DNA of 64,000 bases. It comes from Amoebophrya sp. A120 (taxonomy: Eukaryota; Protista; Dinoflagellata). The position numbers were made by a program, and so were the translations under genes. The notes under the pieces were generated by a model. That model searched no databases. It was not told the DNA's origin and saw only the letters and a program-made list of their open reading frames with translations. Below are positions 2,041 through 64,000 of the stretch, piece after piece (the first letter of the stretch is position 1; each line of letters starts with the position of its first letter). Location of the stretch: assembly GCA_905178155.1 (NCBI GenBank), contig CAJINV010000011.1:10154-74153 (forward strand), read 5' to 3'.

Positions 2041-3550
2041 TTAGCCGGAAGAGAAAGATGCAGCAGCTGCACGCCCGTGCTTCTGCTGTGAGGAGCGGCG
2101 GTATGGTGCGAAACTCTCGTCCTTGCGATGCTCCCCATGGTATTCGTATCTGTTTACATTTCGATTCCGAGTGTTGCGACAGTTACCTACTTCGATAGTA
2201 CATCTTCGCATCACACTCAAATCGGCCAAATTGCTGTAATTCTCCAGAACTCAACAGGGCTATAGTCTACACTTACCTTACGACGTTCGTGCGCTGTCCA
2301 ATGGCTTCGATCCTCGCGAAAGGGTTGCCTGGTAGGTGGTCCGTGCGATCTTCGCCGTCCCCATTTGCATGCAGCTGTCGCGGCACTTCGTACTCGTAGG
2401 ATGAAGAGCCCGTTGGTCCCCCGACTTCCAACGCTGCAGGTCCGCCCCCCGTATTCACTGCAAATATGTCTGGGTCGGGAAATTGAGTGGAGCTTGCATT
2501 CCGTTTGCGGCACGTCTTTGAATGTGTGTTGCATGGCCAGCAAAGGAAGACCCGTACTTTTCATGCAGAAAACGCAATTTGTGTTTCTTATGCGTGCCAT
2601 GCTTCAACGAGCGTTGCAAAACCTTGTCATGCTTCGCTGCAAGTAGAATGCTTCGAAGTGATGTTTTCATCATCCACAATTCAGCTGCATCACAGCCACA
2701 GGTTTCCAGAGCGACACATATTCGTATTTCATACTCCGCTGGCTTCGCGGAAGCAGGAACGGCAGACCGAGAATATGTTTCTATGGTGGGGCGCTCTTGA
2801 TTCCGTCGGCGTGTCCAGTGCAAATATGTCTGGGTCTGGAAGAATGTGAACTTGTATTGCGGAGTCTGGAAAAGCAAGGGAAAATCTGTGCTGCATGGTC
2901 AGCAAAAGATGATCGATTTTTGTCTCCGGAAGAGGGCAAGCCTCATTCAGACTAAGCATGGATAGGCCACCGAAGAATCATTCGTCATGCTCCGTGTGGT
3001 GCATATGCATAACTCCTTTTCCAGACCTACTTGCAGATGCAAAAACTGTGTAAGCACATGTCTGATTTCTTCAGGACCCAGACGTGTTTGCAGTGCGTAG
3101 CGTGCCTGCCACGATCTTTGTGTTGATTTCTCTCCGGCTCGTAATCGCGGTTAGATTATCCAGTGCAAATATGTCTGGCTGCGGAAACTTGTAATGCTGG
3201 GATGGGAATAACAATAGTGAATGCTCTTCGTCTTCAATGCGCAGCCAAGCACGAGAAATATCTGCACTGCTTGGTGCTGCGTTTTATGCATGACAAACTG
3301 CGTTTTTGCATGACAAGTAAAAATGTCTCTTCTTGGACATCACACATCACAAATTTCTCAGTCATGCCAGACAGGCATGACAGATCTTGCATTCATCCAG
3401 ACCCAGACATATTCGCACTTCATATAGATTTCTGTTTCTGCGTATCAAATACAAAATTGCTGCCCCTTCCCTACTTACTCGTTCCCGATGTTTGCGTTGG
3501 TAGGGTTCACCGCGCAAATCTTTGCCTTGCATGCAAAGCAGCTTCGCCAT
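2041..3550 (-). CDS. Multi-exon hypothetical protein (5' end uncertain)
   Basis: SAKPAE|GGPAALE joins in frame across element 2452-2733; canonical GTAAGT...CAG intron 2276-2234 joins in frame to the ORF ending at 2041. Confidence 0.55.
2452..2733. mobile_element. Introner family A
   Basis: tattcactgcaaatatgtctggg...gacacatattcgtatttcata; flanks ccccg/ctccg; frame restored. Confidence 0.8.
2812..3099. mobile_element. Introner family A (ends degenerate)
   Basis: tgcaaatatgtctgggtctggaag...acccagacgtgtttgca; TSD unclear. Confidence 0.7.
3157..3424. mobile_element. Introner family A
   Basis: TIRs; perfect TSD tagat. Confidence 0.85.
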
Positions 3551-3989
3551 GACAAGTCCCGCTTCAACGAGGAGCGTATAGTACGTTTTTCGTCAGTGGT
3601 ACATGCAAAACGATTTTAGAGCAACGAACACAGGCGATTCGGAAATCTCTTTCGGTAGTGGGGTGGCTTGCCAATACCATACTTCTCTTTCTTTTCCTTG
3701 TGGCGAATGGCGTCGTCGTGACGGCTAACATCGTATCAACGCTACAAAAGCCCCCCCTAGGTAAAAAGTGGAATCCACTTCGTGACAGCATGACAGGACA
3801 GGCACAGCGCTACCTACAAGAATGCGAAAACTGGCATTACAAATGGCCTGCAAACGCATCAAAGTCATGAGTTTGAGGAGTGTGTATCTGTATTCTACTT
3901 GTTGCAAGTACTAGGACATCTTTGATGAGTACCTAGTCGAAAACGATGAAGCAGCAGCACGAACTTTTCAACTAACTAGGCGAGCAGGT

Positions 3990-6900
3990 TTATTTTTGTC
4001 TCGATAGGTCGTGCTTCATTTCATGAGTCCGGTCGCCTTGTTCGCGATGGCGGGATTTCGTGGCCTTGTTCTCCTTCTCGTGGTGCTTCATGTTGCGATC
4101 TTGAGTTGCTGCCTCCCGGTGCTCTCTGGCAGGGGGGGCTGCGGTAGGAACAGGTATTTTCATCGAGAGGTGGCGGCTTCGACTGTCCTGTCGCAAACAG
4201 ACCGGGCCTCCACCATCGCCCGCGTCCGCCATGCTGGCGTCATCGTCGTCGTCGCTTTATGCGTTCGCAAATGTCCCTTGACGTCTGGAAGGATGCAAAC
4301 TTGTGATGCGCGTTTCACAATACTACACACAAACCCCTCATTCAGATGCAGCAAAAGTTTGCCCTTTCCTGTCACTGAAATAGCGGATTTGTCATTCGGA
4401 AAAGGCATTGCGAGACCTTCGCACAGCCTGTGAAGATGCTAGGACTTCTTGCATGCCAGACCTTCTGGGTCATGCGAAAGCTGCATCACGAACCTCTGTA
4501 TCCTTCCAGACATCCAGGATCGTTTGCACTGGATACGCTTTCGTGTTGAAAGTCGTCTGCTCGTGCGTGTAAGTCCGCACGATGTCCACTTGGTGGTGGC
4601 ACTGCTCGCACTGCACCTCCTATCCCACGAAAAAGTGTGACAGTCAGTATACACATTTGCTGCAACTTCAGCATCGCATATTTCTCGTCTGCATGTCAGA
4701 GAAAACTAGCAGTGCAAATAGAAATAATATCATAAGGAAAAACACTAACACGTAAAAAAGGAGGCGCGAAAGCCTTTCCTGCATCACAACGGTTTTCGGT
4801 CTTGCCGGTCCTCGTCCAACACAATGTGTATAGTGAAACACTTTTTTCTTGGCATACCAGCGTCTTGCGCCGGAAGCGACCGCGCTGCAGAAGCGGGCTT
4901 CGCCACCTCCAGTCTTGTACAGGTCGTGCTCCGGTAGTTGTTCCGCAGTTGCTCGTTACCACTTCCTATCAATGGCAAATATATGTCTGGGTCTGGAAGG
5001 TTCTAAACTTGTAATGCTGTCAGTGGATTCTACAAAAATTTGTCATGCGGTACCGGTACTATCACAAAGCCTTCTAAAAATCTGTGATGCTACGGCATGC
5101 ATCACAGACATCATGGCTCATGGAAAACATCATGCATGACAAATCTAGAATTCTTCCAGACCCAGACATTTTTGCATTTGATACTTCCGCTGGGAGTCGA
5201 GTCTTCCTCTCCAGGTTCGTTCCCAAAGTGCTCGGCGAGGATCGCATTCTCGACCGTTTTCCACCATGCGACGTTGGGCTTATCGGGAAGATGAGCTTTG
5301 GGTTCCGCCCAGCTGCACTTCCGGCGGTCGCGCACATAGAGTCCGCCCTCGAAGCTATCCTGAGTAGAAACGTCCCCACCCCACCACGTTGGTCATGCAA
5401 ATTATCCGCAGGCCGAAAATCAAATTCTCATTGCATCGCATGCGCAGCCGCATGAGAAGCATTTTCTGTAAGTACTGCGTTTTGCAATTTACCGTGCTGG
5501 AATCAGGCCCAAGGTATAGCCAGTCGATTTGTCATGATCCCACACTAGCTGAAGACGATTACGCGGCGAGTCCAAGTTTGTCATGCGCAACAGCTAAAAC
5601 TTCTTGTTGGCTTGTCGTATAGCAATTGTTTTCTCGTTATCTGGAAAGTGTACTATTCTTTTTCTGTTGGAGTTCGCTCAACGTTGCCACGCCCGCTAGG
5701 TGGCCAAAATGTGCATCTTCAAGATTGTCAGTGTATGACCAAAACTACTTGTCCTTGTCGCCTTGCAGCGGACTTGTCGGCATGCAGCAAAACTTGTGTA
5801 CAGCAAAATGTTTGTCGTGACCAGGGGATGGGGACGTTTTGTTCAGGATAGAAACGTCCCAATTCGAAACGCATCTCCCCAATTTCACCTAGATTGAGTT
5901 ATCAACATATAGTTGGTATACTGTCGTGATCAAGATGCCAAAGAATCGTCCGTCATCTTCATTTGTTGTGGTCTTGCAGCAATACCAGAGACGCAATTGC
6001 ACTACTTGATTAGTAATGATACCTTCATTCCGCCGGCTGAGCCCGCACACTTTTTTATCCTGAGCAAAAACGTCCCCCAGAATTCTCACGCAGTTTTGCA
6101 GTTACAGCAAGATTTGTAATGCGCACCTCCACGAGAGACTGCCATTTTCGATTGTGTTTTTGCATTTGTACTGACGGTGAAAACAGGAAAATCAGATGGA
6201 TTTTTGATACGGCTGTACTTGCCAACCTGCACTGCCCTACAAGTCGTAACTTGTCATGCGTGACTCGCAAAACTTCTGGATTGTGTTCAAGAATCCTCAT
6301 CGTGACTCTGGGGTGGAGACGTTGTTACACAGGATATTTTTCGATGTCGGGAAAGGTGCCGGCACCCTCTTCCTTCTCGTAGTCCAGTTTCAACAATTTG
6401 ACCGGCACAAACCCAGACTTGTCGTTGGCAGCCACGGCGCATGCATTGCAAACATGTCTGGGTCTAGAAACTTGGCATGCTAATAAAGTGTGGATGGCAG
6501 GCAGCCTCCAGTAGCACGCCCTGCATGGCAAGTTTTTCAGGGACTACTTCGTGAGTAAGGAGCATGACAAAGCCCCTTTTTGCAAGACAAACCGACGTCG
6601 CTGTATCGCAACGCGCATGACATCAAGTTTTGTTCTCTTGTCAGACCAGTATCACATGTCTTGCGAGTTCCAGACCCATTCAGATTTGCAGTGGATACGG
6701 TGTTAACGAGCAGGGTAAAGACGACCTCCCCTTCGCTTCCGTATCGGAGCACTTTTCCAAGCTGGTACGAAAAGTCGTTTTCCTGTTGCATTTGAGAAAA
6801 GACATAGGAAGAGCTTTTTCGTCTTGAGGCTTCCTGCTCAAAGAGCAAACTAGCAAAAAGAACATTTCTGTCGGAGCTATATTTTGTACTTAAACAACTT

Positions 6901-7857: not shown

Positions 7858-8200
7858 TGTCCTGGTGTTTCGGACTTACAGCAATTGAAAGAAATGATTT
7901 ACTGCTGGGTGTGAGCTAGATCTCCGCACGGGGGGATCCATCGTCTCGGCTAAGATCTTGACTGGAGCATGGGGATGTAAATAAATCTGATTGGTGCTGC
8001 AGATCTTCAGCGTCGATCTCGTGCGCCACTTAGTGATCGCCACGTGCACTTCTTCCAGATTGGGAAGTCATGATGACGTGCAACGGATCCACAATGAAAA
8101 TCACTGCCAGAAATACTATTACAGGATCTTGAGCACCACGGCATGACCGGGACCAACTGCTCGCAGTTTTACGTCTCGACAGACAGCCGCAAGAACATTT
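7858..8200. repeat. Segment paralogous to 15311-17300, lacking the insertions present there
   Basis: Near-identical blocks at 15311-15417, 15670-15723 and 17085-17300. Confidence 0.85.
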
Positions 8201-9334: not shown

Positions 9335-12300
9335 TCATTGACAGGAGCGCGCCGCCTCATCGTGACGCCGTCGGATCATGGCGAGCGCGTCCTTGGCAGG
9401 GAGCTCGTTCGCTATGTGTCTCCTGTAGCCAGCCCCGTTCGTTCGTTCGTCAGCCTCGTAAATCGTCGACGTTTGCTCTGCTCCCAACGGCTCGAGTCCT
9501 TCCCTTTTGTGTCGGCACTTCGGCAGAGGAAGATGGTGGCGGCGGTACATTGGGTGGTCCCACTGTTCCGGGTGGGTGGGCAGCGCTTGTTTGATCACTT
9601 CGCAGCTGTATCCCCGAGAAAAAAGCAGGCAGGTGCTCGCAGCTGTAACGCAGAAATAAACACACAGAAAAATCTGTCATAGGCGGCCCCATAGTGCGCT
9701 ATTTAGGACACGCAAGACAGATTTTTCAGTGTGTTCATTTTTGCATTTACAAAGATGGCCCGCCGGCTTTTTTCTGTGGGATACACCGCAGGCTCTCACC
9801 CGTTCAGCACAGTCGTCCGCGGCCACTCTCTTCCCATGTGCTGGAGGTCCATCCGCTAGACCAAGGGAGACCCGCAATATCTCCGCGTAGGCCTGCTTTT
9901 CATTGTTCAGAAACAACTCCAGCAGCAATTTTCTTTCCGCGCAGTGCGTCCTCATCCGCCAGTCTTTATCCCAGAGAAAAAAGCTGGCAGGGCACATTTG
10001 TAATGCAAAAATCAATACACAGAAAAACTTGTCGTGGGTGGCCCCATAGCATGGGACTTCGGATATGCAATGCAATTTTTTTTGTGTATTCATTTTTGCA
10101 TTACAGAAATGCCCTCCAGCTTTTTTCTGTGTGATAGTCTTCCATTCCGATGAAGGTGCCATTGAGCCTCATGGCCACGTCGACGGACTTATTGTAAGGA
10201 AATATCCCGCCTCCCCATACTAAAAAGGAACAAGCCGCAGAAAATTTGCAATGCTGATGCGCGATCGCAAATCGGCTCCGTCTTGCAAGAAGGCAACTTC
10301 ACAGGCTCCGCCGCAGTATGAAGGCGGTTTGTGATGCTGTTGCACCTACAGTGTGGACATTTGTAATGCTAGGCCCTAGGTCAAAGCCTCGCTCCCCAGG
10401 GTTGACAGATGCCTGCAGTCCTCTAATGCAAGACAAGTGTGATTTGTGTACGAAAATGCAGCATCACAAATTAGCTTTTCGATATGGGGAGGGGTGTTTT
10501 TCCTTTTGATAAAACTGCACAGCACTGTTTTCCCCGCCGACGAGGTTCGCCGGCTGGTCGCGCAACTGTTTGCAGTATGCATGACAAATGTGTCTGGGTC
10601 TGGAAGGATGCGACTTGTGATGCTACCTTTCGAACACTCTACATAAAATCTGTATTGCATGAACAGCAAATCAAGAGGCGCAAACGCAATTGGCGGAGAG
10701 GGCATTTCTCATGCGGCATGAGCACCAGAAAGCCCTCGCAGAATCTCTAATGCTAGGGCATGCATCACAGACCCCATGGGTGATGCAAAATCTGCATGAT
10801 ACACTCCTGCATTCTTCCAGACCCGAACATATTTGCAGTTGATATGCACAGTTTGCGTGGGATCCAGCCGCGCTTTTTCTTTTTTTCTTCGGCTTGGCCG
10901 ACAAGCCGCAACACCAAAATTGGATCGGTTACGGTTAGCCCGAGCTGTTGTCGCGCTTTGCGCTCGGCCTATTACAATGAAACGCCCCCCCTCGTCACCA
11001 TGTTCAAAGGGAGATTTCTTGTCTAGCATGCTTTGTGCAGCTCACAGATTAGTTTGTCACCCTAGAAGGCAACAGATAGAGATGCGGGCTGCAGTGCTTT
11101 CTCCTTCAGCATGGCAGGAAGCAACTGGAAGTAGCGGGAAACAGCATGACAAGTTGCCTGCATACGCAGCTGCAAGTGCGTCTCTTGGCCTTCTAGCAAC
11201 ACAGGTTCATAATTTCTGTGCGCAAATCTAGAGTTCCACATTGACTTTTCGATATGGGGAGAGGGGATTTTTCCTCGCAATACGGTTTGGTTAAGGGTGT
11301 CCGCTCTGTGGATATGGACGCGCGTCCACTTTGCCGTCAGGAATCGGAGCGGCAACGTATTTGTGTGGAGAATATGAAGTGCAAAATTATCGCACTCGTA
11401 GTAATTGCTGTTACGTACCTACAAACCTCTCTCCTAAGGTAAAAAAACAGCATCACAAATTGATTTGTAGTGCTGAGCTAATTCGTATATGCAACTTGTT
11501 GTACTAGGAGCGCGGTAACAATTAAATCAACTAACTCGGATCTCCGAGTTAGTGGCCCGGCCGTCCGAATCCGGGCGGCCGGACGACTAACTCGGGATTG
11601 TAAGTGGGAAAGTTTTTCGATTGTTATAGCGACGCCGGAGCCGACGACTTCGATCAGAGGCGTGCTTTGAAAACGTCCTGGCAACATATGCAATTCGTGC
11701 GGTTTTGTGCATAATTTTTGCGCTTTCATCAAAAAACGCGCTTCAGTCGGAAAGCGTGTAAAACTGTTGCGCTTCGTAAATGTTAGCTTCACGGCAGGGA
11801 ATATTTCGCCATGACAAAACAGGCATCGCCTGCGTTGCAAAGAAAGCGAAAACGTTGCCCCGCCGATTTTCAAAAAAAACCCTAAGAGCACAAATAACAT
11901 GCACAAAAGCACAAATCCGCATAGGGAATTCCGGCAGTCACCGACTGCGCGAGTTGCCTGCTAGCTAGTGGTCGCCACGAGTTACCCTTACCTGGCTAGG
12001 GAGCTCGTGCGTGGCGACCAGTCTCGGCCGCCCGCAAAACTTTCGCACTTACAGGCCCGAGTTAGTCGTCCGGCCGCCCGGATCCGGACGGCCGGGCGAC
12101 TAACTCGGAGATCCGAGTTAGTTGATTTAATTGTTACCGCGCTCTAGTACGACAATTTTGCAATTCATAGGGAAACTCGAAGAACAATTTCGCGTGGAGT
12201 TCGTGCAGGGGAATCCGCAGTGCTGCAGCAGGTTGGTCACTGGTGTAGACGCGGCACATATCCACCTGTGTAGATTGACGTCCACGGCACCCCAGAGAAG

Positions 12301-14648
12301 TTGTCATGCGAATAAACTGGCAGTGTTCATCGAAGTGTGTGTCATGCGGCTCTCCACGAGAGGGACTTTGTAGCCGTGTTTGGAACAACAACAAAGCGCT
12401 CATGCGCTAATCAGGACAAGAAATTGGACTCGCCATCATGCGTTTCAACTAGCTATGCAGGACTACACTGCACCAAAAGTAGCTGCTAAACTACTTGTCA
12501 TGCCGCGCGGGTCCGAGAGCAGGTTCATCTTGCTGACCCTGGGGAACTACAAGGGACGTCTTTGTGTATCCACCGGATAATGCAGGATGCCACTGGCTGC
12601 AGTGCCGAAGTAGTCCACGTATTCCCGGTCCTGAATTTCCGGATTCCGCACCTCGAACGTCATTGAGATCCGGAGCCCGGTCTCTTTTTTTTTCCCAAGT
12701 GCGTCTGCCGGCTCCTGGTGAAGACCACGGTCCTTCGTGAGGAGCAACCGGTTCGCGTTGCTGTAGAAGTCGTCCTATCAACCGCAAATAAGTATGTCTG
12801 GGTCTGGAAGTTTGTAAACTTGTCACGCAGGAGGTCTCCCATGACCCATGACCATGAGGTCTGGAATGAGGGACCTAGCGTGACAGATTCTGTGAGGTCT
12901 CTGCCATGCCTATCCTGCATGAGAAACTCCCTCGCAATTTGGTCGAAAGTGGACAGCTTTCGGCGCTCATGCAACACAGATTTTTGCATGATTCGGATTT
13001 AGCATGACAAGTTGCAATCTTCCAGACCCAGACATGTTTGCAATCCATACGTCTGTATTCTCATCATGGAGAAGCACCGCACGGACGCCGAAGGTGTAGT
13101 TCTCCTGGGTGAATTGCATTTTTTGCTGATGTATCAAATGCAAAAATGTCATCTGGGTCTGCAAGAATGCAAGACTTGTCATGCACGTTTTGAATGGTAA
13201 TTGAGGTTTGAAATGCAAATCCTAGCATGACAGATTTTGTGAGGTCTCCATCATGCCGATTCTGCATCAGAAACTGCTTGTGTACTTGGTCGAAAGTGGA
13301 CAGCTTTGGGTCATCATGCAACACAGATTTTTGCATGATTCTGTAATTACTTTGACAAGTACCACTTTTCCAGACCCAGACATTCTTGCATTTGATATGA
13401 TGTTCCCGCCGTTGTCTGTCGACGGCGTTCTTCTTTTGCACGTCCTTGAGCGACAGGGCATCGGCCTTCTCCTTCATCAGGCGCTCCTTAATCGGTGTGA
13501 CGGGCATACACGGTTCGTTTCCGAGCATCTGAAACAGAGTTCGTTGAGTATGGCGTTCTCAACTGTCACATTCTCCACTGTTATGCGACGAATTTTTTGT
13601 CATGCAAGAACAACAAAAGTGAGATGAGGACCGTTCTTGCGCGTCTCGCATAATACAGATTTGGCAAAGAAGAGTCCAATGGGGAACTTTGTTGTCATGC
13701 GAAGAAGCTTGATCGTGTGTGGCGTGATACTGATTCTGCGCGATAAAAAATTCATGTAACAGTTGCGAGTGTTTATGCTTGAGATGCTTATTCCCATATT
13801 GAATGTCCTCTGGAAGAGTATCCTCTAGAAGAAAGTGCCATCCTCTTTCGTAGCCAGGATTTTTGGACAGCTGTTAATATACCAAAATCCAGAGTTAGTT
13901 CAGGAAAATCCTCATGACCAGGTACTGTAGGTGTTCCGAGGAACAATGACGGACCGTTTTTGAGAAATCTATGTTGCTGCTCTTGTTTTCTTTTCTGCGG
14001 GATGAATTTTTCCAAAGGAAGAACACAGCGATTAGAAGATATACAATGCTTCGTGACATCACAAGTAGATGCTGTGTGAGAGAGATTAGTCCTGGCGCAG
14101 CCGAAAATAATCCAAATCTGCATGACCACAACTACATCGAGGCAGCTACAACTTCATTTTCCACAGGATAAAAGGGCTGGCGCGAGTTTGCGTTCGGGAA
14201 TTTTCTGTCGTAGCTATCATGAGCAAAACGGTCCCCACCCCACAGTGAAGTTGCTAAATCTGCAACACAAGTCTCAAAGTTTTGGGCGGTATGCATGACA
14301 AGTGACCATCTGCAGTGCTGGCTAGCAAGGGAAGCCGCATGAAAAAGCTCCTCTCACTCTAATCCTGTTTACAGCACTACAAATGCCAACACATGACTGG
14401 AAATGCCTCTCATGGACATGCGCATTGCAAATGTCCCTGGCAGTGCAAATCTGCATGACAACGCTGGGGTGGTGACGTTTTTGCCCAGGATAGTAGCAGA
14501 CCACCACCGTGTTGACCGCCTCGGCATGCATGCGACGGACATTTTGGCGCCGAAAATTCGCGAGCTGCTCCTCCTCGGTTGCCTCGAACCAGGTAGCGTA
14601 CGCTGTCCCAGTGTTCTGGTTAGCCATTGCAGCTCTGTTTTTTGTCAC
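9335..14648 (-). CDS. Multi-exon hypothetical protein (may be two genes, split near 12300-12550)
   Basis: Continuous frame FFEFP|HTNTLPLR...NQT|ERKAR...RKLC|KQLRD...VQF|VDVAM...MED|WRMRT...RACG|GEVIKQ...stop 9335; also REH|QQKMQ...NTD|DFYSN. Confidence 0.65.
9609..9783. mobile_element. Introner family D (fold-back)
   Basis: About 70-bp imperfect TIRs tatccccgagaaaaaagc.../...gcttttttctgtgggata; TSD degraded; frame restored. Confidence 0.8.
9967..10136. mobile_element. Introner family D (fold-back)
   Basis: Long TIRs; perfect TSD gtctt; frame restored. Confidence 0.85.
10190..10511. mobile_element. Introner family C
   Basis: tattgtaaggaaatatcccgcctccccata...tatggggaggggtgttttccttttgata; flanks ggact/aaact. 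Confidence 0.8.
10576..10844. mobile_element. Introner family A
   Basis: Flanks tgcag/tgcac; frame restored. Confidence 0.85.
10970..11282. mobile_element. Introner family C
   Basis: Flanks cggcc/cggtt; frame restored. Confidence 0.75.
11373..12169. mobile_element. Introner family E containing a nested MITE
   Basis: tatgaagtgcaaaattatcg...cgacaattttgcaattcata; flanks gagaa/gggaa; frame restored. Confidence 0.8.
11508..12144. mobile_element. MITE with about 110-bp TIRs and 3-bp TSD TAG (possibly PIF/Harbinger-like)
   Basis: gagcgcggtaacaattaaatcaactaactcgg.../...ccgagttagttgatttaattgttaccgcgctc; tag on both sides. Confidence 0.9.
12776..13049. mobile_element. Introner family A
   Basis: Flanks cgtcc/cgtct; frame restored. 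Confidence 0.85.
13132..13397. mobile_element. Introner family A
   Basis: Perfect TSD tgatg; frame restored. Confidence 0.9.
13819..14170. mobile_element. Degenerate family B-like element
   Basis: tatcct...aggata ends; flanks aagag/aaagg; internal gcatgac motif. Confidence 0.45.
14215..14492. mobile_element. Introner family B
   Basis: TIRs; perfect TSD gtagc. Confidence 0.85.
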
Positions 14649-15417: not shown

Positions 15418-15669
15418 TATCAACTGTAAAAATGTCTGGGTCTGGAAACTTGTGATGCTGGGTGGCGTCTCATGATGAGGCCACAAATGCTGGCTCAGCA
15501 TGACAAGTTTCTGAGCTTCTAGGTGTTGCCTATTCTGCATGACAAACTGCGTTCCTGCATCACAGAAAAACTGAGCTCTTGGGTAACGTGCATGACAGAT
15601 TTAAGAGTCATGCCAGACAAGCATGACAAACATGCATTCTTCCAGACCCAGACATTTTTACATTTGATA
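15418..15669. mobile_element. Introner family A (filled site; empty paralogous site at 7954-7958)
   Basis: Perfect TSD gatct; a single gatct in the paralog. Confidence 0.95.
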
Positions 15670-17647: not shown

Positions 17648-20600
17648 CTATACTAGCAAAGATTCAACATCTTGTTCCGTGTGCCCGCCTTGAATCAGTG
17701 CAAGTTTCAAGATCAACGTGTGCATGTACCAGTATTTTGTCTCTAAATTGAACACCTCCTGGCCGAGCTTTTTGCCCCTATCTGCAATTTTCTCCGCCCA
17801 GTGGTCATTTGCCACGATGAAATTCAACTTGTCGTAGAAGTCTTTCAGATCCCGACGCACGGGAATGTAGTGCTCGTACGGCTGAAAGATCTTGTCGATC
17901 TGGTTGTCATACCGGAAATGTGCGCGAAACAGGACCTGCCCGGCGAGAAAGGACCAGATATCGCGCAGAGAAACGTTGTCGTTGAAATTGTACTTGTAAA
18001 CCACCTGGTCCAGCTCCGAGAAGTACTTCTCCCCCACAGCAGTTCCTTCGTTCTTCTCGAAGTGTGCTTCAAAGTTCCGGTGCACAAAAGCGTTCCACGC
18101 TTCCCGATTCGCAAAAGACTCCGGTTTATTTTCAAGAATCTGTGGCAAGGCCTTCTCCGCGGACACGCGGCCCGGAAATAGCGCAAAGTCTTCGACTATC
18201 AACTGCAAAAATGTCTGGGTCTGGAAGGTTGGAACTTGTTGTGCTAATTTTAGTTTTTAAAAAAATCTGTATTGCATGAGCAGCAAGAGGAGCCCAGTTT
18301 GTGCTACACGGGGAGCGCATATGTCATGCGGGATTTGCATCAGGAAGGCTTCTAAAAATATTTGATTCTAGATCATGCATTACAGACATCCCGAGTCATG
18401 CAAAATATGCATGACAAACCTGGTAACTCCTAGACCCAGACATTTTTGCATTTGATATCGATCGGGTTGAACTCGAGGCTGCGCGGCCAACTTGTTGCTT
18501 TGATGTTGATCTTGCTTGCAAACCTGCTGTGTCTAGTACGTCTGGCAAGATGCCAAGCTGTTCTGCCTTTTAGTTACACTTCACAGAAGTCGCGATGTGC
18601 CAAGTTTGTCTATGTACTTCTTGCGTGTACTGCAATAGTACTTACCATAAGCCGTCGATGATCACTTTGTTTTCATCCCTCGTTATTCTTTCATGGTCGA
18701 CTAGTAGACTCATTTATTCGACTTCCTACTCGTGCAGAGTACGGCGCAATATTGATGAGGGGCGGTTTTCATCTTCAAAAGACCTGGGCTCAATGCTATG
18801 CTTTGCGTGTGTTTATCCACACCCTCTGTTCTACTGAAGGATGCAGAAACAGCATGTCAAACGAGCCTGCTTTTCCAGACCGAGACATTTTTTTGCAGTA
18901 GATAGTCGAAGGAAAAGGAGGTTTTGTTGGAAAAGAGGAAGGGGTACTTCTGCTCCTTCGTTCCAATTTCCCGGTCTGCATCTAAAAATCGAAACTGCAT
19001 TTGCTGTTTTTTCAAAATCGAAACTGTTCTGCGCCCCCATAATGCTGCTTCGCACTGGTCTGTCTTCGTTCCCCGTCTGTCTTGTTGCCTGCGTTCTTCT
19101 TTCTGGTCCCCCGTGTTCCTGTTCGTGTCGGTGGTCTTTCCTGTGTCGCTTGTTTTCCTTCGCCCCGGTTTCTGTTGTTCCTGCTGCTACCGCTTCTGTG
19201 TCTGTGCCGGTGCTCTAGTGCTGTCCTGGGTTTTCTTCTTGCTGTCCTGGTGTTTTCGCACCTCTGCCCGAGTGTTCTACGTTAGCTTGACTGCTTTTCG
19301 CCAAAATCTGCTAGTGCTAGTGCCTAAAATCCCGAGGCCCGCAGTCAAATCATCGTCATCATCATCACAAGTCTTTCCTGCTTCTTCCCCGAACACAAGC
19401 GGCGATCAGTCTCCAACAGCTAGTCATCCCCGCGACCCGATAGGAACGAAGCCTAAAACTGTGAACGCAAATTTCGAATCCCGAAACTAGTCTCAAATCT
19501 TAAATCCCGGTAGGTCAAATAGGTACTGCTACTGCAAGACGGGTCCGGGGTCAGAACTGCATCGATCGGAATCTTCTATCAGCGAGGGAACACCGTCGGA
19601 GGAAGAAGTTGCAGTCACCGGCAAAGTCGCTACACGACTACACGCCCCCTGACTGGAACTTCTTCTTCGTTTTCGTCTTGAACCCCGACGTTATTTTTTC
19701 AGACGCAAACATACCGACATCAAATCGAACACCATCTAAAGCTACATCTTAAATTCCACAGATACGCATTACAAATCCATAGTCCCAAGTCTAGTTTTTC
19801 CAGTTTCTCATGCTAAATCCGTATTCCTAAACAGCCCGCAGTGACCGTAGCCATGGCTCACCTCCTTGAAAGTAGTAAGAAAGCCAGTTTTTCATGCGGA
19901 TTCAGCGTAAATCAGAGTTAATTTCTTTGCTTTCCTCTTCCTCTCTTTTCCTATTTTCTTCGTCTTTCGATCGTAGCAAGAATTTGCTTGCTTTTCTTCG
20001 GTTTTCTGGCCCTTTTCTTGCTCGATCGATTTCTTTTCCTCTTTCTTATCATCCTGTTCATTTTCTGCATTTCCTAACTTTTGATCTATGAGAAACAGCG
20101 TTCAAAACTAGTTTTCAAATACACACCTTTCCAGACGAAGACACTTTTTTGCAGTAGATACTCGAATATCAAATGTAAAAGTGTCTGGGTCTGGAAGAAT
20201 GCAACTTGTGATGCTATTTTTGGAATCCAAAAAAATCTGTATTGCATGAGCAACAAGAGGCGTCCAGTTTTTGCTCCGCGGAGAGGGGATTTCTCATGCG
20301 GGATAGGCATCAAGATGCCCGCAAAAAAATTGTGATGCTGGTGCATACATCACAGACATCACGGGTCATGCAAAATGAGCACGACAAGCCTTGCAATCTT
20401 CCAGACCCAGACATTTTTACAGTTGATATCGAAGGAAAAGGCGGTTTTGTTGGAAAAGAGGAAGGGGTACTGGCGAATATTCTCTTCGTCGTGCGCAGTG
20501 AGGAGGAGTGAACCTTTCCCGGTTATCCTCAGTAGAAACGTCCGCACGACCCCAGAGTTGTCATGCAAAAGGGCAAAAAACGCACGTGTTTCTTATGCGC

Positions 20601-24456: not shown

Positions 24457-24488
<32 letters not shown>

Positions 24489-43393: not shown

Positions 43394-45010
43394 TGAGGAG
43401 GACAAAAGGTTATCGGCCCCGACGGAACAAGAGGACGAACATGAGGGGGCAGGACCCGCGGGAGCAGCGCGAGAAAGACCTCGGGACCGCGGCCTTCCCC
43501 GGGGAATATCCGTTGGCAGTTGACCTGTTTTAGATGATATACAGAAGTAGGGAAGCAGAGAAGTCGTGCAACAAGTGCTTCACTACTTCCAATTGCATCG
43601 TAAAACTAGAGCACGGGAGTGAAGTATTGCTGTGCGTCTGTTTCTCGTTATTATATGAGTATGGATATGCAAGCGCGACAAAAGAAAAATCTTCAAGAAG
43701 AGGACGATCTAGATCGACTTCACTAACAGAGTGGGACTAGGCACAATAAGACCTTTCTCTTTCCCCGTCGCTGCAGTACCCTCAGCGGCTCGATCCGCGT
43801 CATTCTTGTTCCTTTTATCCTTCTTCTTCTGCTGCTTACGGGGCCGCGGCTTCTGCATGCGCTGTAACTGCTGGCGCCTCCTGGCCATGCGTCCGAGTGG
43901 GATGCGTTGCCTTCTGCGCGCCGTCTTCTCTTTTTTCTTTTTTTTTTGTTGTGTCTGCCTTTTGAGTCCGGCGCCATCTTCTCTGCTTTCTTCGTCTTCC
44001 GACGAAAGAAAAAAATGGTGAACCATATTGGAAGGCGAGTGAGGAATACTGTCGTATCTGTAAAAACGCAAAACCTAAACTTACACTTGCCAACTACTTT
44101 ATGTATATTGCAATGTAAAACTAAAATGAAGTTTTTAGTAGATCACTGTAGCCGGTGCGAACCGCGAAGTTGTGTATCTCTGGCCTGTCGTTTTGGTTTC
44201 GGGATGAAGAGAAGAAGAAGCGAAAATAGACCCTAACCAGAGCGGGCGCGGGGCGCGAGTGGATACTTCTGCCCACGGGGTCCCATATATATACTGCAAT
44301 GTAAAATCAAAATGGAGTTTTAGTAGATCACTGTAGCCGGTGCGAACTGCGAGGCTTAGTATATATATAAGAAGCTTACTTGATGAAGAATGACGAAGAG
44401 GCTTGGTTGAATTACTTATGAAAGACGGATCTTGCATAGTCGCAGTCTAAAACCCTTCAGCCTCGGGGTGGAGATCTTAATGTCGATATGACCCAGCGAA
44501 CATGAAAAAGAAAAAGAATCGATTTCAATGCATCAGTGCGGGCTTCAATCTTATGTATTTACGACGATTAGAGAGTCTGAGATCTGCTGTGTTACCCCGG
44601 AGGAAAAAAGGATGTGTTGCAGCAGGCTATGAACACCAATAGAACTCGTGGGGCAAGAACGAAAAACTTCTTGCCACTGAAAAATATCGCATTGCTAAGT
44701 AACAAAGCACACGCGTGAAATCTCTGGACACTTCATAGCGGGTCTGAAAATACAACTCCGGCTTCGTACAGAAAAAATACAACCTATTCCTCCGGACTCG
44801 TACAGATCCAATTCCGGTTTCTCAATTCACAAATGGACATCTTGAGGTCTTCTGCTCTGCGGTAATGCAATTCGCCTTGGTGCGCTTTTGTTTTTTCGGT
44901 TCGGTCGGGGCCGCCGTTTTCCTGATGTTTTAGTGGTTGTCTTCTGCGAGGAACGTGCCACTGACACGGTCCTTCCTTATCCTGGTACCTGCAACAAGTT
45001 TGTTTTTCCG

Positions 45011-48385: not shown

Positions 48386-51300
48386 TCATTCTTCATCAAC
48401 ATCGACGTTAAGATCATGTCCATCTTCCTGATCGTCCAATTTCAAGTCTTGGCCTTTTCGGAATTTGTAGAGAGTCTTCTCCACCGCGTCGTCAACAATA
48501 AAGTCATCCTCGTCCTCTGTCGTGTCCATCCTGCATGGACAACGGATCTTCCTCTCCGGAGCCCACGCGAGAATCCGCTCCCAGTTTTTCTGGTCGTCGG
48601 AACTGTGTACGCCGACAGTCGTAGTGAACTGGGATTTATTTCGTCGATCTACCGCCTTCGACGTGCTCCTGGACGCAGATACAAGGACTCCTACGTCACC
48701 TAGTGGTGCAGCTACTAGCAAGGGTCGCTCGATATTGTTCTCGCCACTTATACTTTGCTCCTTTTCATCGCCCATCGAGACGAGATGGTGACCGGGAGCT
48801 ACTCCTCCTCCCCGTCCGACCTCCTCCATTCGCAAGCGAACGCCCGCCTTCCCGGCCGAGCATTTTCCCAGGTAGACGTGCGCGATCGGGTCTTCACAAA
48901 GTGCGCACAGCAGGATGCACAGCTCGCGCTCGGCGGTTCTCGAGGAACTGCTGGCGTTCTTCTCCAACACGGCGTTTGCAGGTGCAACGGGAGCCGCGGC
49001 GGGGAGCTGCTTGTAGTTCGAAGACTTCTTGTTCTCCGCTTCTTTTATTGCAACAACGCTCTCTGCCGACGGGGGTGAGTTTTTTCCTGCGGACGCCGTA
49101 TCGCGTTCCTGCAACAACTTCGTAGCCCGTTTCAACATCATCTGCGGGCGTTGTACTACCGGTCCTTGTTCTACTGGCAAGAGGGATATTGAGGACGTCG
49201 ATCCCCGAGCTGTAGACCGCGCTGCCTGAGTGCGGTGGTATGCTGTGCAAAAGTAATACTTCTTAATATCCCGGTACTCCTCGTAATAATCGCAATGATC
49301 ACCAATGAAAAATATCGTTTTTCAGGTACATCAGCATCACAAATTCCGTTTTTTATGGTCTCAAGCTAATTTTTTGTATGTGAACGCAATGTGGTGCCAT
49401 CAGTATCGGATAAGTAGAAGTACAACTTCATTTGCTGCAATTCTTAACCGAGTAGGCACTGCCGCAGCTTTGGACTTGATCTTCAGCGCCGGCTGCAACG
49501 CCGATGAAGCGGAAGTACTAAACGATGCAGCTACTGAAACAGGTTTTGACAGCGCTCTGTTCTTGTCGGCTTTCTTTATGACGGCAGAAGAAGAGGAGGA
49601 CGAGGGCACTAGCTTCAAGGTTGCTTTCGGTGCGGCAAGGACGGCGTCTTTCCAGTCTTGGTCATTTTTTTTGGATTTGCGAAACTTGCACAGAATCCAT
49701 TCCACGGTGTGTGCGAGCCAGCACAAAGGTTTCCCGTACTGCTGAAAAAGCTCCGTAAGGTCCGCCCGCATCAAATCGCACAGTACCAGCAGGCGCGCAT
49801 CGTCCAGGTCCCGCTCCGCAACCGATCTCGACTTTTTGGCTACCGCCGTGCCATCTTGTTCTTTGCTAATGGGCCAATTTTCACCGGAAACGGCCCACGC
49901 CAACGGAACTACTGTGTATGAACTGCAAATGTCTCTGGGTCTGCAACAAGAATACAGAAATTTGTCGTGCTGGAAGGCTAAGGGCAGGGCGTGCGAATGC
50001 AGAGATTCGCCATGCAATTTTCGGACCTGCTCCTGCAATACGGTCTGGTCTTCATCCAGCGCATGCCTAGCCCGCATGAGAGATGCCCTTTCCAGGAGGC
50101 AAAAAGCGCACGCTTGATTGTTGCTGACTATGCAATACAGATTTTCGTCTACTCCAGGATCAGTATGACAATTTCCTATGTTCGAGACCCAGACGTATTT
50201 GTAATGCATACTGCGCCCAGCCCGACTACTGCTTTGACGTCTTCTAGGACCTCGAAAAAAGGTATGAGAGTGCACAACCCCCCTCCGCTCCCCCCCCATT
50301 TGCATGGCACAAACATCAATACAAACGCCAACACGACAAGTGGAGGTTGTGCGTGACCAGTGCATGAGCGTTTCGGCTTCCGGAAGAAGCACCTGTCACG
50401 CAAACAGGCACGCAAGACAGCATGAGGGATTTTGCATGACAAAAATGCAAGGGGAGGATAGCGGGAGCAGGCGGCGAACTCTCATAAAAGCATCGAAAAG
50501 CTCGCAGAGGTCGATGAAGAACTCGTACAAGTAAAAAGGCATGTCGCGCAACAACTTTCGACCGTCCTTCGGTTTCGTCGTACTGCCGCTTCCCGCCGTC
50601 CACAACGCCCGAAAGAGTTCTGCAGCCGCGTGCAGTCTCGCATCAAGTGACTCCGTTACCGAGGGCGGCTCCCAATGCCGCAGTTCGTTCCAGAATTTTT
50701 GCAGGGTGGCTTCGCTTGCGAGCACCTGCATGCCGCGCTTGTCTCGTTTCCTTTTCTGTTCCAGGAATTGCAGCTCGTCCTCGGTGAAGGGGGGCACCAA
50801 GCCTAGAGGCAGAGGCTCGGACACCCAACTGCCATGGAAACTTGATTTCGTTCCCGGCTGCAAAATTCGCTGGAGAAGCGCTCGGTAGGCCACCTTCCCC
50901 GGCGACCCCTTTCCCCCTGGCGTGGTTTGCGGCAACTTCTGGTGCAAAAATCCGCTTCGGCCGGCGTCCCGCCGAAGCGCCGTAGCGTCCTCGTCCGAGC
51001 CACTCGTGAGCGCGCCCTTGTTCGACTCTGCCTCGCATGATCCACTGCGAATCTATCCGGTTCATCTGGAAAATCTTTACCTGGCTTGTTGTCATGTGTC
51101 GACGAGGACATTAAGAACACCAACAGGAAGGAAAGAATTGTATAAATAAACGAAAGTTCTTGAGCTACAGTTGCATCGGTTTGCTAAGCAGAAACGCAGT
51201 CTGTCATGCGATTTACACAATACCTGGGCGTGGGCACTGAAAACTTTGTCACGCGGCATTAAAAATATTTCCCAATAATTATAACATTGCAGCCTGCTTA

Positions 51301-51566
51301 TGATCCACGCATTTTTAGCGTTACGACTTTCCAGACACGGAAATATTTGCATTGGATACCGCAATCAGCAGCTCTTTGGTGAACTGGAGGAGCAGCCCAC
51401 ACCGTTCGTGCTGCACGTTTCGCAGCTGCATCTCCAGAAATTCGCCCCAGCCATCGCTGACGCTTGTTTCAAACTGCTCGCCGAGGTAGTGAGAGACGAC
51501 TAGCTCCTTGGCTTGGCGCAGCGCCGGGTCTTGCGGAGTGTTGTGAGCGGCGTAGACCAGTGCCAT
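48386..51566 (-). CDS. Multi-exon hypothetical protein
   Basis: ELFDAF|FEVLEDVKAVVGLGA|VVPLAW joins in frame across two elements; terminal ORF 48386-49180; outer linkage tentative. Confidence 0.55.
49917..50210. mobile_element. Introner family A
   Basis: Flanks ctgtg/ctgcg; frame restored. Confidence 0.85.
50263..50486. mobile_element. Introner family F
   Basis: tatgagagtgc...gaactctcata; flanks aaagg/aaagc; frame restored. Confidence 0.8.
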
Positions 51567-51969
51567 CGCCCAGGAGGCCCTTGTTCACACTACTAGATCG
51601 TGGGTCGGGAGGCGCTGTCTTGCATCCGTCATTTAATGTTGCTTGCTGTTCAGAAGTACCGGTAATTTTTGCGCGGAGACAACGCTAATGACGAACAAAT
51701 AAAAATAAGTACATAAAGTCGGAAGTCGTCCAATTCCTAGATCTAGACCAAGGCGCTGAGGGAAAAAAACTAATTGGCAAATGGTTCTACTACAGCGGTA
51801 AAGGACGACCCAAGGGCTCTCGAAGCTTGGCTGTGGCTGGTTGCTGTTTGAAAAAAGCGACAACAATAGAGAAATTCATTGCACACAAAGATGGCGATCG
51901 GATCGATGTTCTTGGTAAATTCTTTTTAGGCCGTGACAGATGCGCTACTGAAGAGATAACGGAACACAA

Positions 51970-55988: not shown

Positions 55989-58900
55989 TTACTGGAACAG
56001 GGCCTTCTTCGTCTTACCGTCTTCCAAGTTAGTGGGAATCGCTCTGCAACCGCTCGTATCGAACGCAAATGTGACTAGGTCAGGAAAAGTGCAATGTTTG
56101 TCATGCATTTCTTTAAAATGACCTATAAGTAAGAGCAACTTCATCTTCAACTTCTGTGATGTATGCTCTAGCATCACAGATTTTCTGTGTATTTCTTGAT
56201 GCCTTTCCAGCAAAAGACATAAAATGCCTCCTCCGCGGAGGAAAAAAATGCGCGGCTCTTGCTGCTGAGGCAAGACAAATTTTTTCAGACTCCAAAACCA
56301 GCATCACAAGCTGCAATCTCGCCGACTCAGACAAATTTGCATCCGATAGCCCTCTTCTTGCTCGTGCTGTTGCTCCCTGGACGATCCTATGCATTGCTAA
56401 CATGTCTGGGTCTGGACGATCGAAACTTCTGGTGCGCGTTTTGGATCAGACAAAAATCTGTCATGCATGGAAAGCAAAAGTCGCCCAGTTGTTGTCACCA
56501 AATCCTCGAACTCCTCATGCGGGGTAGGCATTGAGAAAGCTGCCAGAGCTTCTTGGTCATGCAAAAACAGCATGACAAAGTCCACCGCACATCATTTCCG
56601 GACCCAGACACGTTTGCAATGCATAGATCCGGTGACAGGTGAGTCGTTCCGGTCACACCGCGGGCGGGAGCAAGAAGTGCTTGTTGCACGGCAGCGCGGC
56701 GAACTCGCAGTCTTCGCTCGCTTGTGTTCATCGTCGCAAGAACTTTTGGACGTCGATTTCTTTCGCCTTTTCTGCCCCCCGCTGGCGTCGCCGCTATCGC
56801 ATTCGTTCTCGTTACCACCTATAATTGCGCAGGGTAGACACAATTTCTTCGACGTCGTGCTCATTGTTACTATCTCTGTTCTTGTGCATGTAGTGGTCCC
56901 AGAACACGTCGTGCTCTTCGGCGGAGGAAAAGTCTGATTTCTAACATGCTGGCCGTGGTGAAGCAAATCCTTCAGCGATGAACGTCCCATGTAGTTCTCT
57001 TCGTCCACAAACTCCAGCTCAACATCCGACGTGCTGTCAGCTACCGTGACTGCAGCTGGATGTTGTTTTTGTTTTACTTTTTTGTTTTTGCTCCTCCCTG
57101 GTCCTCGTGCTCGTGCTCCTTGTTGCTGCTCCGCACTCTGTGGTGTACTACAGGAGGAGATCATCTCCCTCGACTCGTGCGCGACAAGCGCAGGTGGAAA
57201 ATGTTCCTTGTGGTGGTTGCTGCTGTGGTTGTCGGGACTTCCACAGCTACTTGAGATGATCCGTGGCTCGCGCGAAAGCGGATGTTGACCACGGTAGTTG
57301 TACGACCCAGGAACAACTTCTGCACAGGAAGTTGCACTACTTCCGAAATTTTTATCGTCCATAATGGACGACGGCCACACGTCTGCCCGCTCGGTCGAAC
57401 GTGGTCGGACGTTGATATTTGATGTTGCGGGAGGCCCGTCTAGCATTGAAGGTTCGCGTTTGTTAATGCAAGAACCTCCTCCCCCTGTGGACGACGAGAG
57501 TACACTTTGCCGATTTTGTGCTGGTCTAGGAGAGCGGCTGCTGGTGCACACTTTTCGATCCGGACCGCCATGCTTATCGGACGAGGAAGAACTAGTTTTC
57601 ATCACTTTGGAGGAGGTAGTAGAAACGAGACCGATGTTTATTTCTGCACCGCTGTCCGTTGCAGTTGTAGCAGTACGACAAGAAGAACCCGTGCTGGAAA
57701 TAAGTCGCATCAGTTGTGAAGATTCTTTCGTCTTGTCCTCTGTAGTTGTACTTTTTGTTATCTGGGCGGATGGTCCTCCCGAGTAAGAAGTTGTTGTAGG
57801 TTGTGGCGTATCCAGTGCAAATATGTCTGGGCCTGGAATATTTTTCAGGGATTTGTCATGCTACTTTGGTACGCTTACATCAATTCACTGACATGCATCG
57901 CAACTTTCCAGACCCAGACATATTTGCAATGCATATAGCATCTTCTTGAGCCCGTTGTTCCACCTTCCCGTGCGAATAAGCTCCTCGTTCCTCCTGCTGT
58001 TAGCCAGTTCGGACATCACGCGCTTCGGGTAGTTCATGTAGCTGCTATCGATTGTCACAGGCTTCTCCTTTATGCATCGCAAAAGTTGTTGTACTATCCT
58101 CCTACTAGTATGAATTGCATTTACAAATTTGTTCACACGGAAAATTAGAATTTGTGATGCTGGTTTAGCTGGTATAGAAAAAAGATTTGTCATATATCAT
58201 TGAATTTTGCAATAAGTACAACGACGATACTTATTTTGCAGCCCATATCCTTCACCTGTTGACAACGAGTGCGACGTCGTGGTTCTGTATGCGGTTTTGA
58301 GGTTGTAGCTGCTGCTGTGGTAACTTTAATATAATCCGCTGTAGTTGCAGTTGCTGTCGGTTTTGAGGTTGTAGCTGCTGTAGTGGTGATTTTAATACTC
58401 GCTGTAGTTGCACTTGCGGTCGGTTTTGAGGTTGTGGGTGCTGCTCTGGTAATTTTAATATCCGCTGTTGATGCAGTCTCTGTCGGTTTTGAGGTTGTAG
58501 CTGCTGTACTTGTGGTACGTTTGATATCCGCTGTAGTTGCAGTTGCTGTCGGTTTTGAGGTTGTAGTTCCTTTAGTCGTTATTTGCAGTTGCTGTGTTGT
58601 AGTTGCAGTTGCTGCGCCGACGCCTTTATTATTTCCCAAGTCCATGTTGATCCGTGGCGTCAAGGTTACGTGGGTCTTGGCTCGCGGAGTAATACTAACA
58701 TTCATGGCCGGGGTCGGCGAGGGAGCTGCACTGGTGCGGCTACGTGGCTTTAGCAGCACTACCCGGTGGACGCCGGATTATACCAACTGAAAACCTGCTC
58801 TTTCCGTACAGTTCTTGTTATAGTATTTCTGTCAAACATTTCGTTTCTAAGTACCACGGACAAAAAATCAAGAATACATGTTGATTTTTTCACAACATAG

Positions 58901-62600: not shown

Positions 62601-62734
62601 CTGCGTTCACACATCTACACACTTCGAAACCTAGTTCCCAGCAAGTGCACAACAGTTGTCTTGGAAACTTCTTCGTCAAAGTTCGCCGGCCACTTCGATT
62701 GCAAGTCGGAGGTGAGTGTTGAGCGGTTCACAGA

Positions 62735-64000
62735 TCATGAATAGGTCTTGCGTAGGTGCGGTACCACGTCAGGGAAGACGTTCGGAGAAATCTCAATCAT
62801 CGGTGCAGCAGCTGCGTCGGTGCTGTACTGGAAAGGAGAGAAAAGTAGTTCGCGGTTGCTGTACTTGCCGAGAGGCGGATCCTCATCTTCTTCTTTACCT
62901 CCGCCACCACCACAGTCTCCGCACTGCCCCGCCGTCGAACAACCGGCATATTTGTCAACATCTTGCGCTTGAGTCGACATTTTCTGTTCCTGCGAAGATG
63001 TTGTCGCCGCGAAGAAAAGCATGTTCTGCACACGAACACCCGTAGATGATACGGCGTTTATTAATGCGTTGTAACACCCCAGCACTAAGTACGCGTCTAG
63101 TGCCGCGTAGCGCTGGTAAAGCTCGGGCAAAGGGCGTGGTAGAAAGGCCCAAGGACTGCACTCCAGTTGCCTGTTCAGCTGGAACCCTTTGTAAACAACT
63201 TCACACAGCTCGGTCATGGAGGTCCAGCACGACGCGGAGTGGTCCTCTTCCTTCGTGGTGGGTGTGAACATCTTCAAAGCGGGCTCTTCATTTGGTTGGG
63301 TGGAGGAAGCGAACTCGAGCTTTTGGGTGCTGGCACTGGGGACGCAAAATTTTTTTGCGTTTGTGCTGCAATCCGAGTAGTCCGATTCGGCATCACCTGG
63401 GTTGTAGTTCTGGGGCGCCGGGACGGTTTGCAAATTGATCAACTCCGCAAGGTATGGATTGCAAATACGTCTGGGTCTGGAAGATTGCAACTCGTCATGC
63501 TAAATCTGAAGCATGCAGAAAGAGAAATCTGTGTTGCATGAGTGCCAAAAGCTGTCCACTTTCGATCAAGTTGGAAGAAAATTTCTGCCGCAGGATGCTT
63601 AGGCATGGCAGAGAACAACTCACAGAGTCTGTCATGCTCGGTCCCGCATTTGAGACCTCATAGCTCATGAAAACCCTGCATGACAAGTTTACATTCTTCC
63701 AGGCATCCCGGGATTGTATTTGGATTTGATACAAGGTGGTAGGACTTGGATTTCTTCGTTTTGCGGCTCTTGTTCTCCAGTTCATCACCTGGTGTCAAAT
63801 TCCGTCGCAGACCACCTCCGACCGGGTTTATTTTTCCTGCTTCATCTCTACAACTCAATTCTACTTGTTCTTCAGCATCTCCACCATGATGATCATCCAC
63901 GGAAAGACCCAGCCTGGAAAACTCCTCCGTTCCGAAGGCCACAATTTTCTCGGCATACTTTTCCGAAATACTGCGCACCAAATCCAGGGCGTAGTTGCTG
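62735..64000 (-). CDS. 3' part of a hypothetical protein (runs off the window end)
   Basis: KSYHL|AELINLQ joins in frame across 63453-63731. Confidence 0.65.
63453..63731. mobile_element. Introner family A
   Basis: Perfect TSD caagg; frame restored. Confidence 0.9.

Follow-up and report, generated by a model that had tools for sequence, protein, structure and literature searches.

In this study, we examined a 64,000-nucleotide (nt) stretch of the genome of Amoebophrya sp. A120 (contig CAJINV010000011.1; hereafter the window) in which short elements with terminal inverted repeats (TIRs) interrupt protein-coding genes, and relate the structure of their ends to the way they leave the transcript. 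These are the published introner elements of this strain, an already known class, and we found that all annotated junctions fit removal in one fixed register. Our preferred reading, to which we give a probability of roughly 0.5, is that they resemble miniature inverted-repeat transposable elements (MITEs) and are removed in this register, likely by an altered spliceosome with its branch point at A−7, the A seven bases from the 3′ end of the intron.

A fixed cut register

Exons of the window are 100% identical to three annotated A120 proteins, P0001 (GT90), P0003 and P0005, whose gene models were built from transcript alignments. Removal of each element together with 5 nt yields 14 of 14 junctions in P0001, 5 of 5 in P0003 and 12 of 15 in P0005, the remaining three being GT-AG introns, while 32 further junctions join open frames in unannotated models. 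This bears out an earlier reading of the letters (the sequence-only reading), which had held that deleting an element plus one repeat fuses the flanking frames and had counted 12 such junctions in the GT90 gene. When the three proteins were rebuilt for each k, the number of upstream repeat bases retained in the mRNA, k=4 gave 0 amino acid differences and k=0-3 and 5 gave 1-10 per protein. All 31 element junctions admit k=4, five exclude k=5 (a cut at TAT), eight exclude k=3 and two admit only k=4 (log10 P = −6.8 for a register distributed uniformly over 0-5). Three of the five junctions excluding k=5 offer no GT or AG placement that could bias an aligner. Two edges of RNA-type contigs agree, one lying at 21534 without mismatch (k at least 4) and the other stopping at 12581 (k at most 4). 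From k=4 at the annotated junctions and these edges, the intron is N-TAT…ATA-NNNN, cut one base before the left end of the element and four bases after its right end.

GT-AG ends occur at 1/31 junctions in the fixed register and at 2/31 in any register from −2 to 7, so the canonical U2 pattern (GT/GC…AG) does not describe these introns. As the sequence-only reading had it, the sense strand at 27085-27397 has neither GT nor AG in registers 0-5 and no register at 26233-26531 gives both; the GT…AG visible at 27085-27397 belongs to the plus strand, antisense to the gene. An early idea of ours, a 3′ cut 1 nt past ATA giving AG, was refuted by the annotated GT90 protein junctions. The fixed register, with one free base before TAT, predicts introns that start with NT, as do the nine commonest non-canonical A120 motifs reported, all of which begin GT, CT, AT or TT (PMC7789003). 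In A25, TT is the non-canonical 5′ start most often found.

For comparison, we used 136 loci (609,495 bp, partly overlapping) retrieved by a degenerate end motif from one metagenome-collection assembly, in which elements are up to 95.6% identical to window copies; no region orthologous to the window was among the best BLAST matches listed. A frame test in these loci was modest in outcome, 21 of 37 informative junctions fitting one retained 5-mer (p=0.003). The accessible literature on Amoebophrya, to which our search was confined (subscription journals and figures, including Fig. 3 and S19-S25 of Farhat et al., lay outside it), states neither a fixed register nor a lariat or circle test, and we found in it no earlier statement of such a register or of the three constrained bases.

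Sequencing contigs locate the removal. They cover positions 12300-24300 and 4 of 11 sequencing runs, of which X3 is guessed to be RNA and X1 and X4 behave as DNA. Contig 12 of X3 joins 18191 to 18458 on the minus strand, and the skipped 18192..18457 equals element 18197-18457 plus 5 nt, the kind of transcript gap that had been proposed as a check. Besides this joint, three more X3 contig edges lie on predicted borders: one piece of contig 9 ends at 14493, another spans 12581-12770, and contig 14 ends at 21534 with 0 mismatches. The 277 nt of contig 9 that separate its two pieces equal the genomic span minus four elements with 5 nt each, one degenerate end having been fitted by this count. X3 contigs are not all spliced, contig 12 also extending into the composite intron 18511-20428. 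The DNA-type contigs of X1 and X4 pass through elements intact; as 576 joints lie outside the list, rare excised DNA may still exist. Precise removal of the element and 5 nt, which the sequence-only reading had left between RNA and DNA, is thus supported in RNA by contig 12 and the annotated proteins, whereas DNA excision is disfavoured.

Two further observations concern the reads. The DNA-type contigs contain many joints of a right to a left element end, one with 6 letters between, which may reflect micro-exons that separate adjacent elements at other places in the genome, or else circle junctions. From the raw RNA run X9 came 40 partial reads on element interiors, most of them 90-95% alike. 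Of these, 33 match only the interior 12966-13013, at 90-95%, a level of identity that points to transcription of a related element in a different strain or organism.

Element structure and strand asymmetry

Across the window there are 67 candidate TIR elements (19,506 bp, 30% of its length), obtained from end matches paired by hand plus two elements exposed by the annotated proteins; 49239-49412, 58071-58196 and 36061-36278 are weak candidates. The 5-nt direct repeat is perfect in 20 and carries one mismatch in 21. The sequence-only reading had the perfect count right and was low in its totals, with about 55 elements and 18 single mismatches. Inverted-repeat pairs with a flanking direct repeat number 38 in the window versus 1, 1 and 0 in three shuffles. 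Sense 5′ ends start with TAT in 64 of 66 elements, and end positions 11, 12 and 13 are A in 56, 59 and 56 of these. Lengths range from 126 to >1700 nt and interiors are unrelated between families, seven interior BLAST clusters together holding 26/66 elements. Every modelled host gene lies on the minus strand, and at least two elements fall outside coding exons, 15418-15669 in a duplicated non-coding fragment and 20167-20428 inside the composite annotated intron. Pairs dropped from the catalogue were 10317-11164 (inner segments of two elements), 9732-10017 (a false pair from the inverted-repeat scan) and, in the loci, L025 318-5802 (seven element ends lie inside) and L053 5768-9975 (a chance repeat around host exons).

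The loci hold 372 distinct elements, whose ends were detected from positions 4-27 only, leaving repeats and terminal triplets unused. A perfect 5-nt repeat flanks 270 of them, and the mean repeat match is 0.88 at length 5 versus 0.24-0.31 at lengths 2-4 and 6-9; the target duplication is exactly 5 bp. With TIRs, a target-site duplication (TSD) of fixed length, empty sites (Table 1) and many copies, the elements have the features of MITEs. Relative to the transcript, related elements lie in the same orientation in 15 and in opposite orientation in 17 of 32 window pairs, and among relatives of 15418-15669 the counts are 17 and 8. No autonomous element with a transposase, including the long copies that the sequence-only reading had proposed to look for, was found in the window or the 136 loci. 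One main-family element, L072 476-2934 (2.46 kb), carries some 2.2 kb of cargo that includes a 415-codon frame, which had no Pfam or Atlas match and gave an unusable structure model (predicted local distance difference test, pLDDT, 39); Pfam likewise gave no match for frames from L018, L035, L036 and the GC-rich intergenic blocks. Nested in element 11373-12169 is a different 637-bp element (11508-12144), whose TIRs are long and near-perfect and whose duplication is the 3-nt TAG; we take it to be Harbinger-like by its TSD type.

Which end bases matter depends on the strand. Flanking codon usage alone oriented 283 of 348 loci elements (leave-one-out agreement 206/251), and 271 of the 372 entered the comparison of ends after removal of 24 (repeat match <2), 65 (not orientable), 8 (match <3) and 4 (misregistered). 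Changes at TIR positions 1, 2 and 3 numbered 0, 1 and 8 at the 5′ end and 9, 6 and 1 at the 3′ end (p=7e-5); the window, with ends set by hand, gave 0, 0, 2 and 9, 6, 0. A−7 is present at 31/31 annotated junctions. U+2, A+3 and A−7 are therefore constrained, and the constraint follows the transcript strand. Since a TIR is symmetric in DNA, its mirror positions would be expected to decay at equal rates if no RNA process read them, and the asymmetry favours base-specific recognition at the RNA level.

The sequence-only reading had proposed removal guided by the TIRs. In its favour, end-to-end pairing is predicted for 56/62 elements. On the other side, annotated junctions with little predicted pairing (3734-4006, 25382-25562) and one whose ends belong to two different elements (18511-20428) are nevertheless removed, and the conserved bases are strand-asymmetric. 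Pairing alone does not account for this asymmetry, as hairpin wobble would allow U-G at positions 2 and 3 yet forbid the changes observed there. Within the repeat, mismatches in the loci at positions 1-5 numbered 20, 18, 17, 16 and 21 of 283, and a better conservation of position 5 in the window (55 versus 46 of 66 for position 1, p=0.10) was not replicated.

Routes of removal

In the mechanism that we propose, a trans-acting DDE enzyme, probably integrase-like, would insert the elements. In the transcript, an end-to-end hairpin may stand in for the undetected U1 by bringing the intron ends together, U+2 and A+3 would serve as the 5′ signal and A−7 as the branch nucleophile, and the 3′ cut would be measured from A−7, with no need of AG. 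As both signals lie on each end, on opposite strands, insertion at any site and in either orientation would restore the exon exactly. A120 is reported to have U2, U4, U5, U6 and the majority of spliceosomal proteins, with U1 given as undetected (PMC7789003), and a fixed branch-to-3′-end distance of like size in Yarrowia, Giardia and Trichomonas speaks in favour of a spliceosome. We put at slightly short of an even chance the more specific proposal of a spliceosomal pathway without U1 and independent of both G+1 and AG, in which the TIR supplies the U-A 5′ site on one strand and the branch A on the other, and the 3′ cut falls 7 nt from the branch.

Several points weigh against the mechanism that we propose. 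The register rests mainly on gene models from transcript alignments, and two of the five junctions excluding a cut at TAT have GT as a neighbouring option, shifted by one base. In the standard spliceosome, the first base of the intron is paired with its last; in the loci there is no marked preference for G at +1 (GT 89, AT 70, CT 61, TT 59 of 283), and AG ends number only 24/283. About one third of 3′ ends read GCAT rather than the YTRAY-like GAT, a poor U2 match, and A−7 is absent from two of the three GT-AG introns in P0005. Both signals would be concealed within a hairpin, which has to be opened. X3 counts as RNA by guess only, with 576 joints outside the list; no lariat, circle or intermediate was seen, the raw reads amounting to the 40 partial ones of X9; and the window and the 136 loci yielded no transposase.

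The same elements and register could also be handled by a nuclease that reads the hairpin and the terminal bases and makes its cuts 1 nt and 4 nt beyond the stem, after which a ligase joins the exons and a circle is released as in euglenids. We regard this, the chief alternative, as possible though not probable. It would accommodate a +1 position without G, the lack of AG preference, both orientations, the pairing predicted for 56/62 elements and the report of U1 as undetected (PMC7789003), and it has a precedent in euglenid introns, which yield circles and for which RNase III-like or tRNA-type routes have been proposed (PMC11282704, PMC12621601). It sits less well with U+2, A+3 and an A shortly before the 3′ end, which are bases a spliceosome reads, and with the removal of junctions that show little predicted pairing. 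RNase III leaves a 2-nt stagger, as opposed to the 3-nt net overhang here.

If instead the cut varied within the repeat, as drawn by Farhat et al., the single register would be an artefact of gene models and TAT anchoring. Their figure legend terms the sites variable or unknown (PMC7789003), annotated ends are scattered within families, and three genes only stand behind the register test; however, 31/31 junctions admit register 4, at the probability given above, three of the junctions that exclude register 5 offer no GT or AG to bias the aligner, and two RNA-type contig edges fit, which leaves this explanation improbable. Excision from the DNA of the expressed genome, like that of ciliate internal eliminated sequences, would suit the perfect geometry of TIR and duplication, and contigs would lose rare excised alleles, but with elements intact in DNA-type contigs and a constraint along the transcribed strand that a symmetric DNA reaction does not predict, we consider it very unlikely. 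Self-splicing ribozymes would agree with the strong predicted structure, but hardly with unrelated interiors between families, lengths of 126 to >1700 nt, function in both orientations and no Rfam match in 1-24000, and seem scarcely credible.

If the more specific, U1-less pathway is true, any insertion, in either orientation, would be born as a scarless intron, which would account for a single genome having gained introns by the tens of thousands. The removal route has been an open question since 2021, in part owing to the treatment of borders as variable, and a single register with three constrained bases makes exact predictions: a branch at A−7, a free first base, and a lariat or circle product. 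At stake is the distinction between a spliceosome working without GT-AG and a new non-spliceosomal route. With most introns of A120 being non-canonical, the register rule would also allow its genes to be predicted correctly. It further suggests an intron cassette that is compact, scarless and independent of orientation.

Host genes and comparison with known systems

Table 1. Genes, elements, introns and empty sites in the window (aa, amino acids)
Feature	Position	Strand	Remarks
Gene of P0005, 533 aa	2044..7423	-	annotated A120 protein; 12 elements
P0005 elements 1-6	2452-2733, 2812-3099, 3157-3424, 3443-3681, 3734-4006, 4258-4535	-	
P0005 elements 7-12	4621-4856, 4967-5183, 5356-5850, 6056-6336, 6440-6697, 7047-7255	-	
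P0005 GT-AG introns	2150-2276, 5889-6022, 6783-6918	-	
Intron of element 2812-3099	2808..3100	-	fixed register is the sole placement matching the annotated protein
Intron of element 3734-4006	3730..4007	-	cut at TAT excluded; no GT or AG placement possible
Empty paralogous site of element 15418-15669	7954..7958	-	one 5-mer copy
Predicted 481-aa gene	9335..14627	-	11 elements; RNA-type contig 9; frame open only in registers 4, 5
481-aa gene elements 1-6	9609-9783, 9967-10136, 10190-10511, 10576-10844, 10970-11282, 11373-12169	-	
481-aa gene elements 7-11	12259-12579, 12776-13049, 13132-13397, 13564-14170, 14215-14492	-	13564-14170 degenerate
Intron of element 12259-12579	12255..12580	-	RNA-type contig ends at 12581, so transcript lacks base 12580
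Young element	15418..15669	.	perfect repeat; non-coding; copies 95.6% identical in comparison assembly
GT90 gene, P0001, 1127 aa	17651..27869	-	annotated protein; 14 element junctions
P0001 junctions 1-5	18197-18457, 18511-20428, 20524-20797, 20886-21187, 21264-21533	-	18511-20428 composite
P0001 junctions 6-10	22101-22370, 22499-22756, 22950-23196, 23288-24995, 25382-25562	-	
P0001 junctions 11-14	25629-25908, 25971-26157, 26233-26531, 27085-27397	-	
Empty paralogous site of element 20167-20428	18905..18909	-	one 5-mer copy; adjoins older element 18510-18904
Element at 5′ end of composite intron	20167..20428	.	perfect repeat; 6 nt from older element end
Intron of element 21264-21533	21260..21534	-	RNA-type contig 14 retains upstream repeat position 4
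Intron at 26233-26531	26229..26532	-	fixed register TT…TG
Intron at 27085-27397	27081..27398	-	fixed register CT…CA
Predicted gene(s)	29100..33466	-	open-frame models
Elements of 29100..33466	29732-30024, 30097-30313, 30383-30647, 30666-30837, 31895-32141, 32218-32469, 32541-32742	-	candidate only: 33312-33466
Candidate element	36061..36278	-	sequence evidence alone
Predicted gene	39300..43580	-	~1050 open codons once elements removed
Elements of 39300..43580	39841-40125, 40268-40437, 40719-40946, 41001-41298, 43229-43354	-	
Gene of P0003, 351 aa	45014..47517	-	elements 45347-45639, 45708-45866, 45923-46185, 46206-46628, 46675-46962
Predicted gene	48386..51575	-	elements 49239-49412 (weak), 49917-50210, 50263-50486, 51036-51358
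Predicted gene	55990..58777	-	elements 56057-56348, 56388-56625, 57809-57935, 58071-58196 (weak)
Element in open frame	63453..63731	-	perfect repeat

The composite intron 18511-20428 consists of an older element, a duplicated exon fragment (18906-18948 versus 20429-20471) and a young element whose insertion point lies 6 nt from the end of an old one; its one-step removal matches the annotated protein, and a two-step route via a micro-exon may match too. The GT-AG intron 5889-6022 (minus strand) starts GTATC and has an A at −7, resembling a decayed element turned canonical. A protein database search with the 481-aa gene gave no match, and its RNA-type contig, at 4246 nt, is far longer than the gene. 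Shuffled fragments, duplicated from the 3′ end of the GT90 gene and from exons of the 481-aa gene, lie at 7856-8556, 15312-15995, 16476-16529 and 17084-17317, and include a truncated element from 8556 and an orphan right end at 15891. Elsewhere on the minus strand, tandem repeats of 63-66 bp at 58292-58612 code for a Thr/Ala-rich tract, and 62738-63499 has a weak match to PF01612 (3′-5′ exonuclease domain; E=2.5e-4, below the cut-off). GC-rich intergenic or intronic blocks with internal repeats occupy 1-960, 23560-24300 and 52000-53600, and the frames tested there were without Pfam match.

That these elements belong to a known Amoebophrya class, as the sequence-only reading suspected, is clear from the account of Farhat et al. 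(2021; PMC7789003), whose text gives A120 introners as having inverted repeats of TAT, seven loose bases and at least three A's, direct repeats of 3-5 nt, RNA sequencing (RNA-seq) support and 29,850 repeated introns, and reports no transposase in A120. The window elements share the strain, the TAT + 7 + AAA ends, the flanking repeat (5 nt), the non-canonical ends (removal is non-GT-AG at 30/31 annotated junctions), a length of about 240-280 nt and the RNA-seq support. Unlike that description, with its variable or unknown borders and repeats of 3-5 nt, the repeat here is exactly 5 nt, the register single and the constraint strand-asymmetric.

On the side of mobility, the claim of the sequence-only reading that no superfamily matches holds for established ones, and there are leads. 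Among 38 of the 58 A120 rows in the family table of Gozashti et al. (2025; PMC12130899), most are given as 'TIR DNA, superfamily unknown'. Their family 38 (~810 bp), with open reading frames (ORFs) resembling the integrase of long terminal repeat (LTR) elements, is annotated 'Ginger; 5-bp TSD, TA/TA termini', although the main text describes it as without true Ginger termini and TSDs (PMC12130899). The elements studied here have this 5-bp TSD and TA…TA termini, and family 38 is the best published lead on the mobiliser, but no counterpart of its integrase-like ORF was found in the window and loci elements examined, and 13 of the 14 supplements hold no copy of the main end motif. The 5-bp TSD is also that of hAT5, and IS3EU ends start with TAY, similar to TAT, but IS3EU has 6-bp TSDs (PMC12730594), a length at which the repeat is perfect in 1/372 loci elements; no transposase ties the A120 elements to either.

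Concerning removal, the nonconventional introns of euglenids and diplonemids are alike in end pairing, TSD-like repeats, the lack of GT-AG and a mechanism described as open, and are distinguished by a CAG/CTG pairing motif, a tendency to pyrimidine-purine borders and, in Euglena, circles (PMC11282704, PMC12621601). The A120 elements show neither that motif nor those borders, and unlike euglenid introns take any base at +1, with a TAT/ATA stem from +2 and −5. MITE-derived introns of Fritillaria borealis likewise combine TIR and TSD, and their removal is reported to rely on a U2 spliceosome that has adapted; they prefer AG-AC and AG-AT ends (PMC11282704), whereas in A120 the first base and the last four are free. 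Alike in branch geometry are the introns of Yarrowia, Giardia and Trichomonas, whose branch A lies at a fixed distance from the 3′ end (−6 and −8 as counted from the printed motifs, against −7 here), but which, unlike the A120 elements, retain GT, AG and a strong ACTAAC branch motif (PMC2483917).

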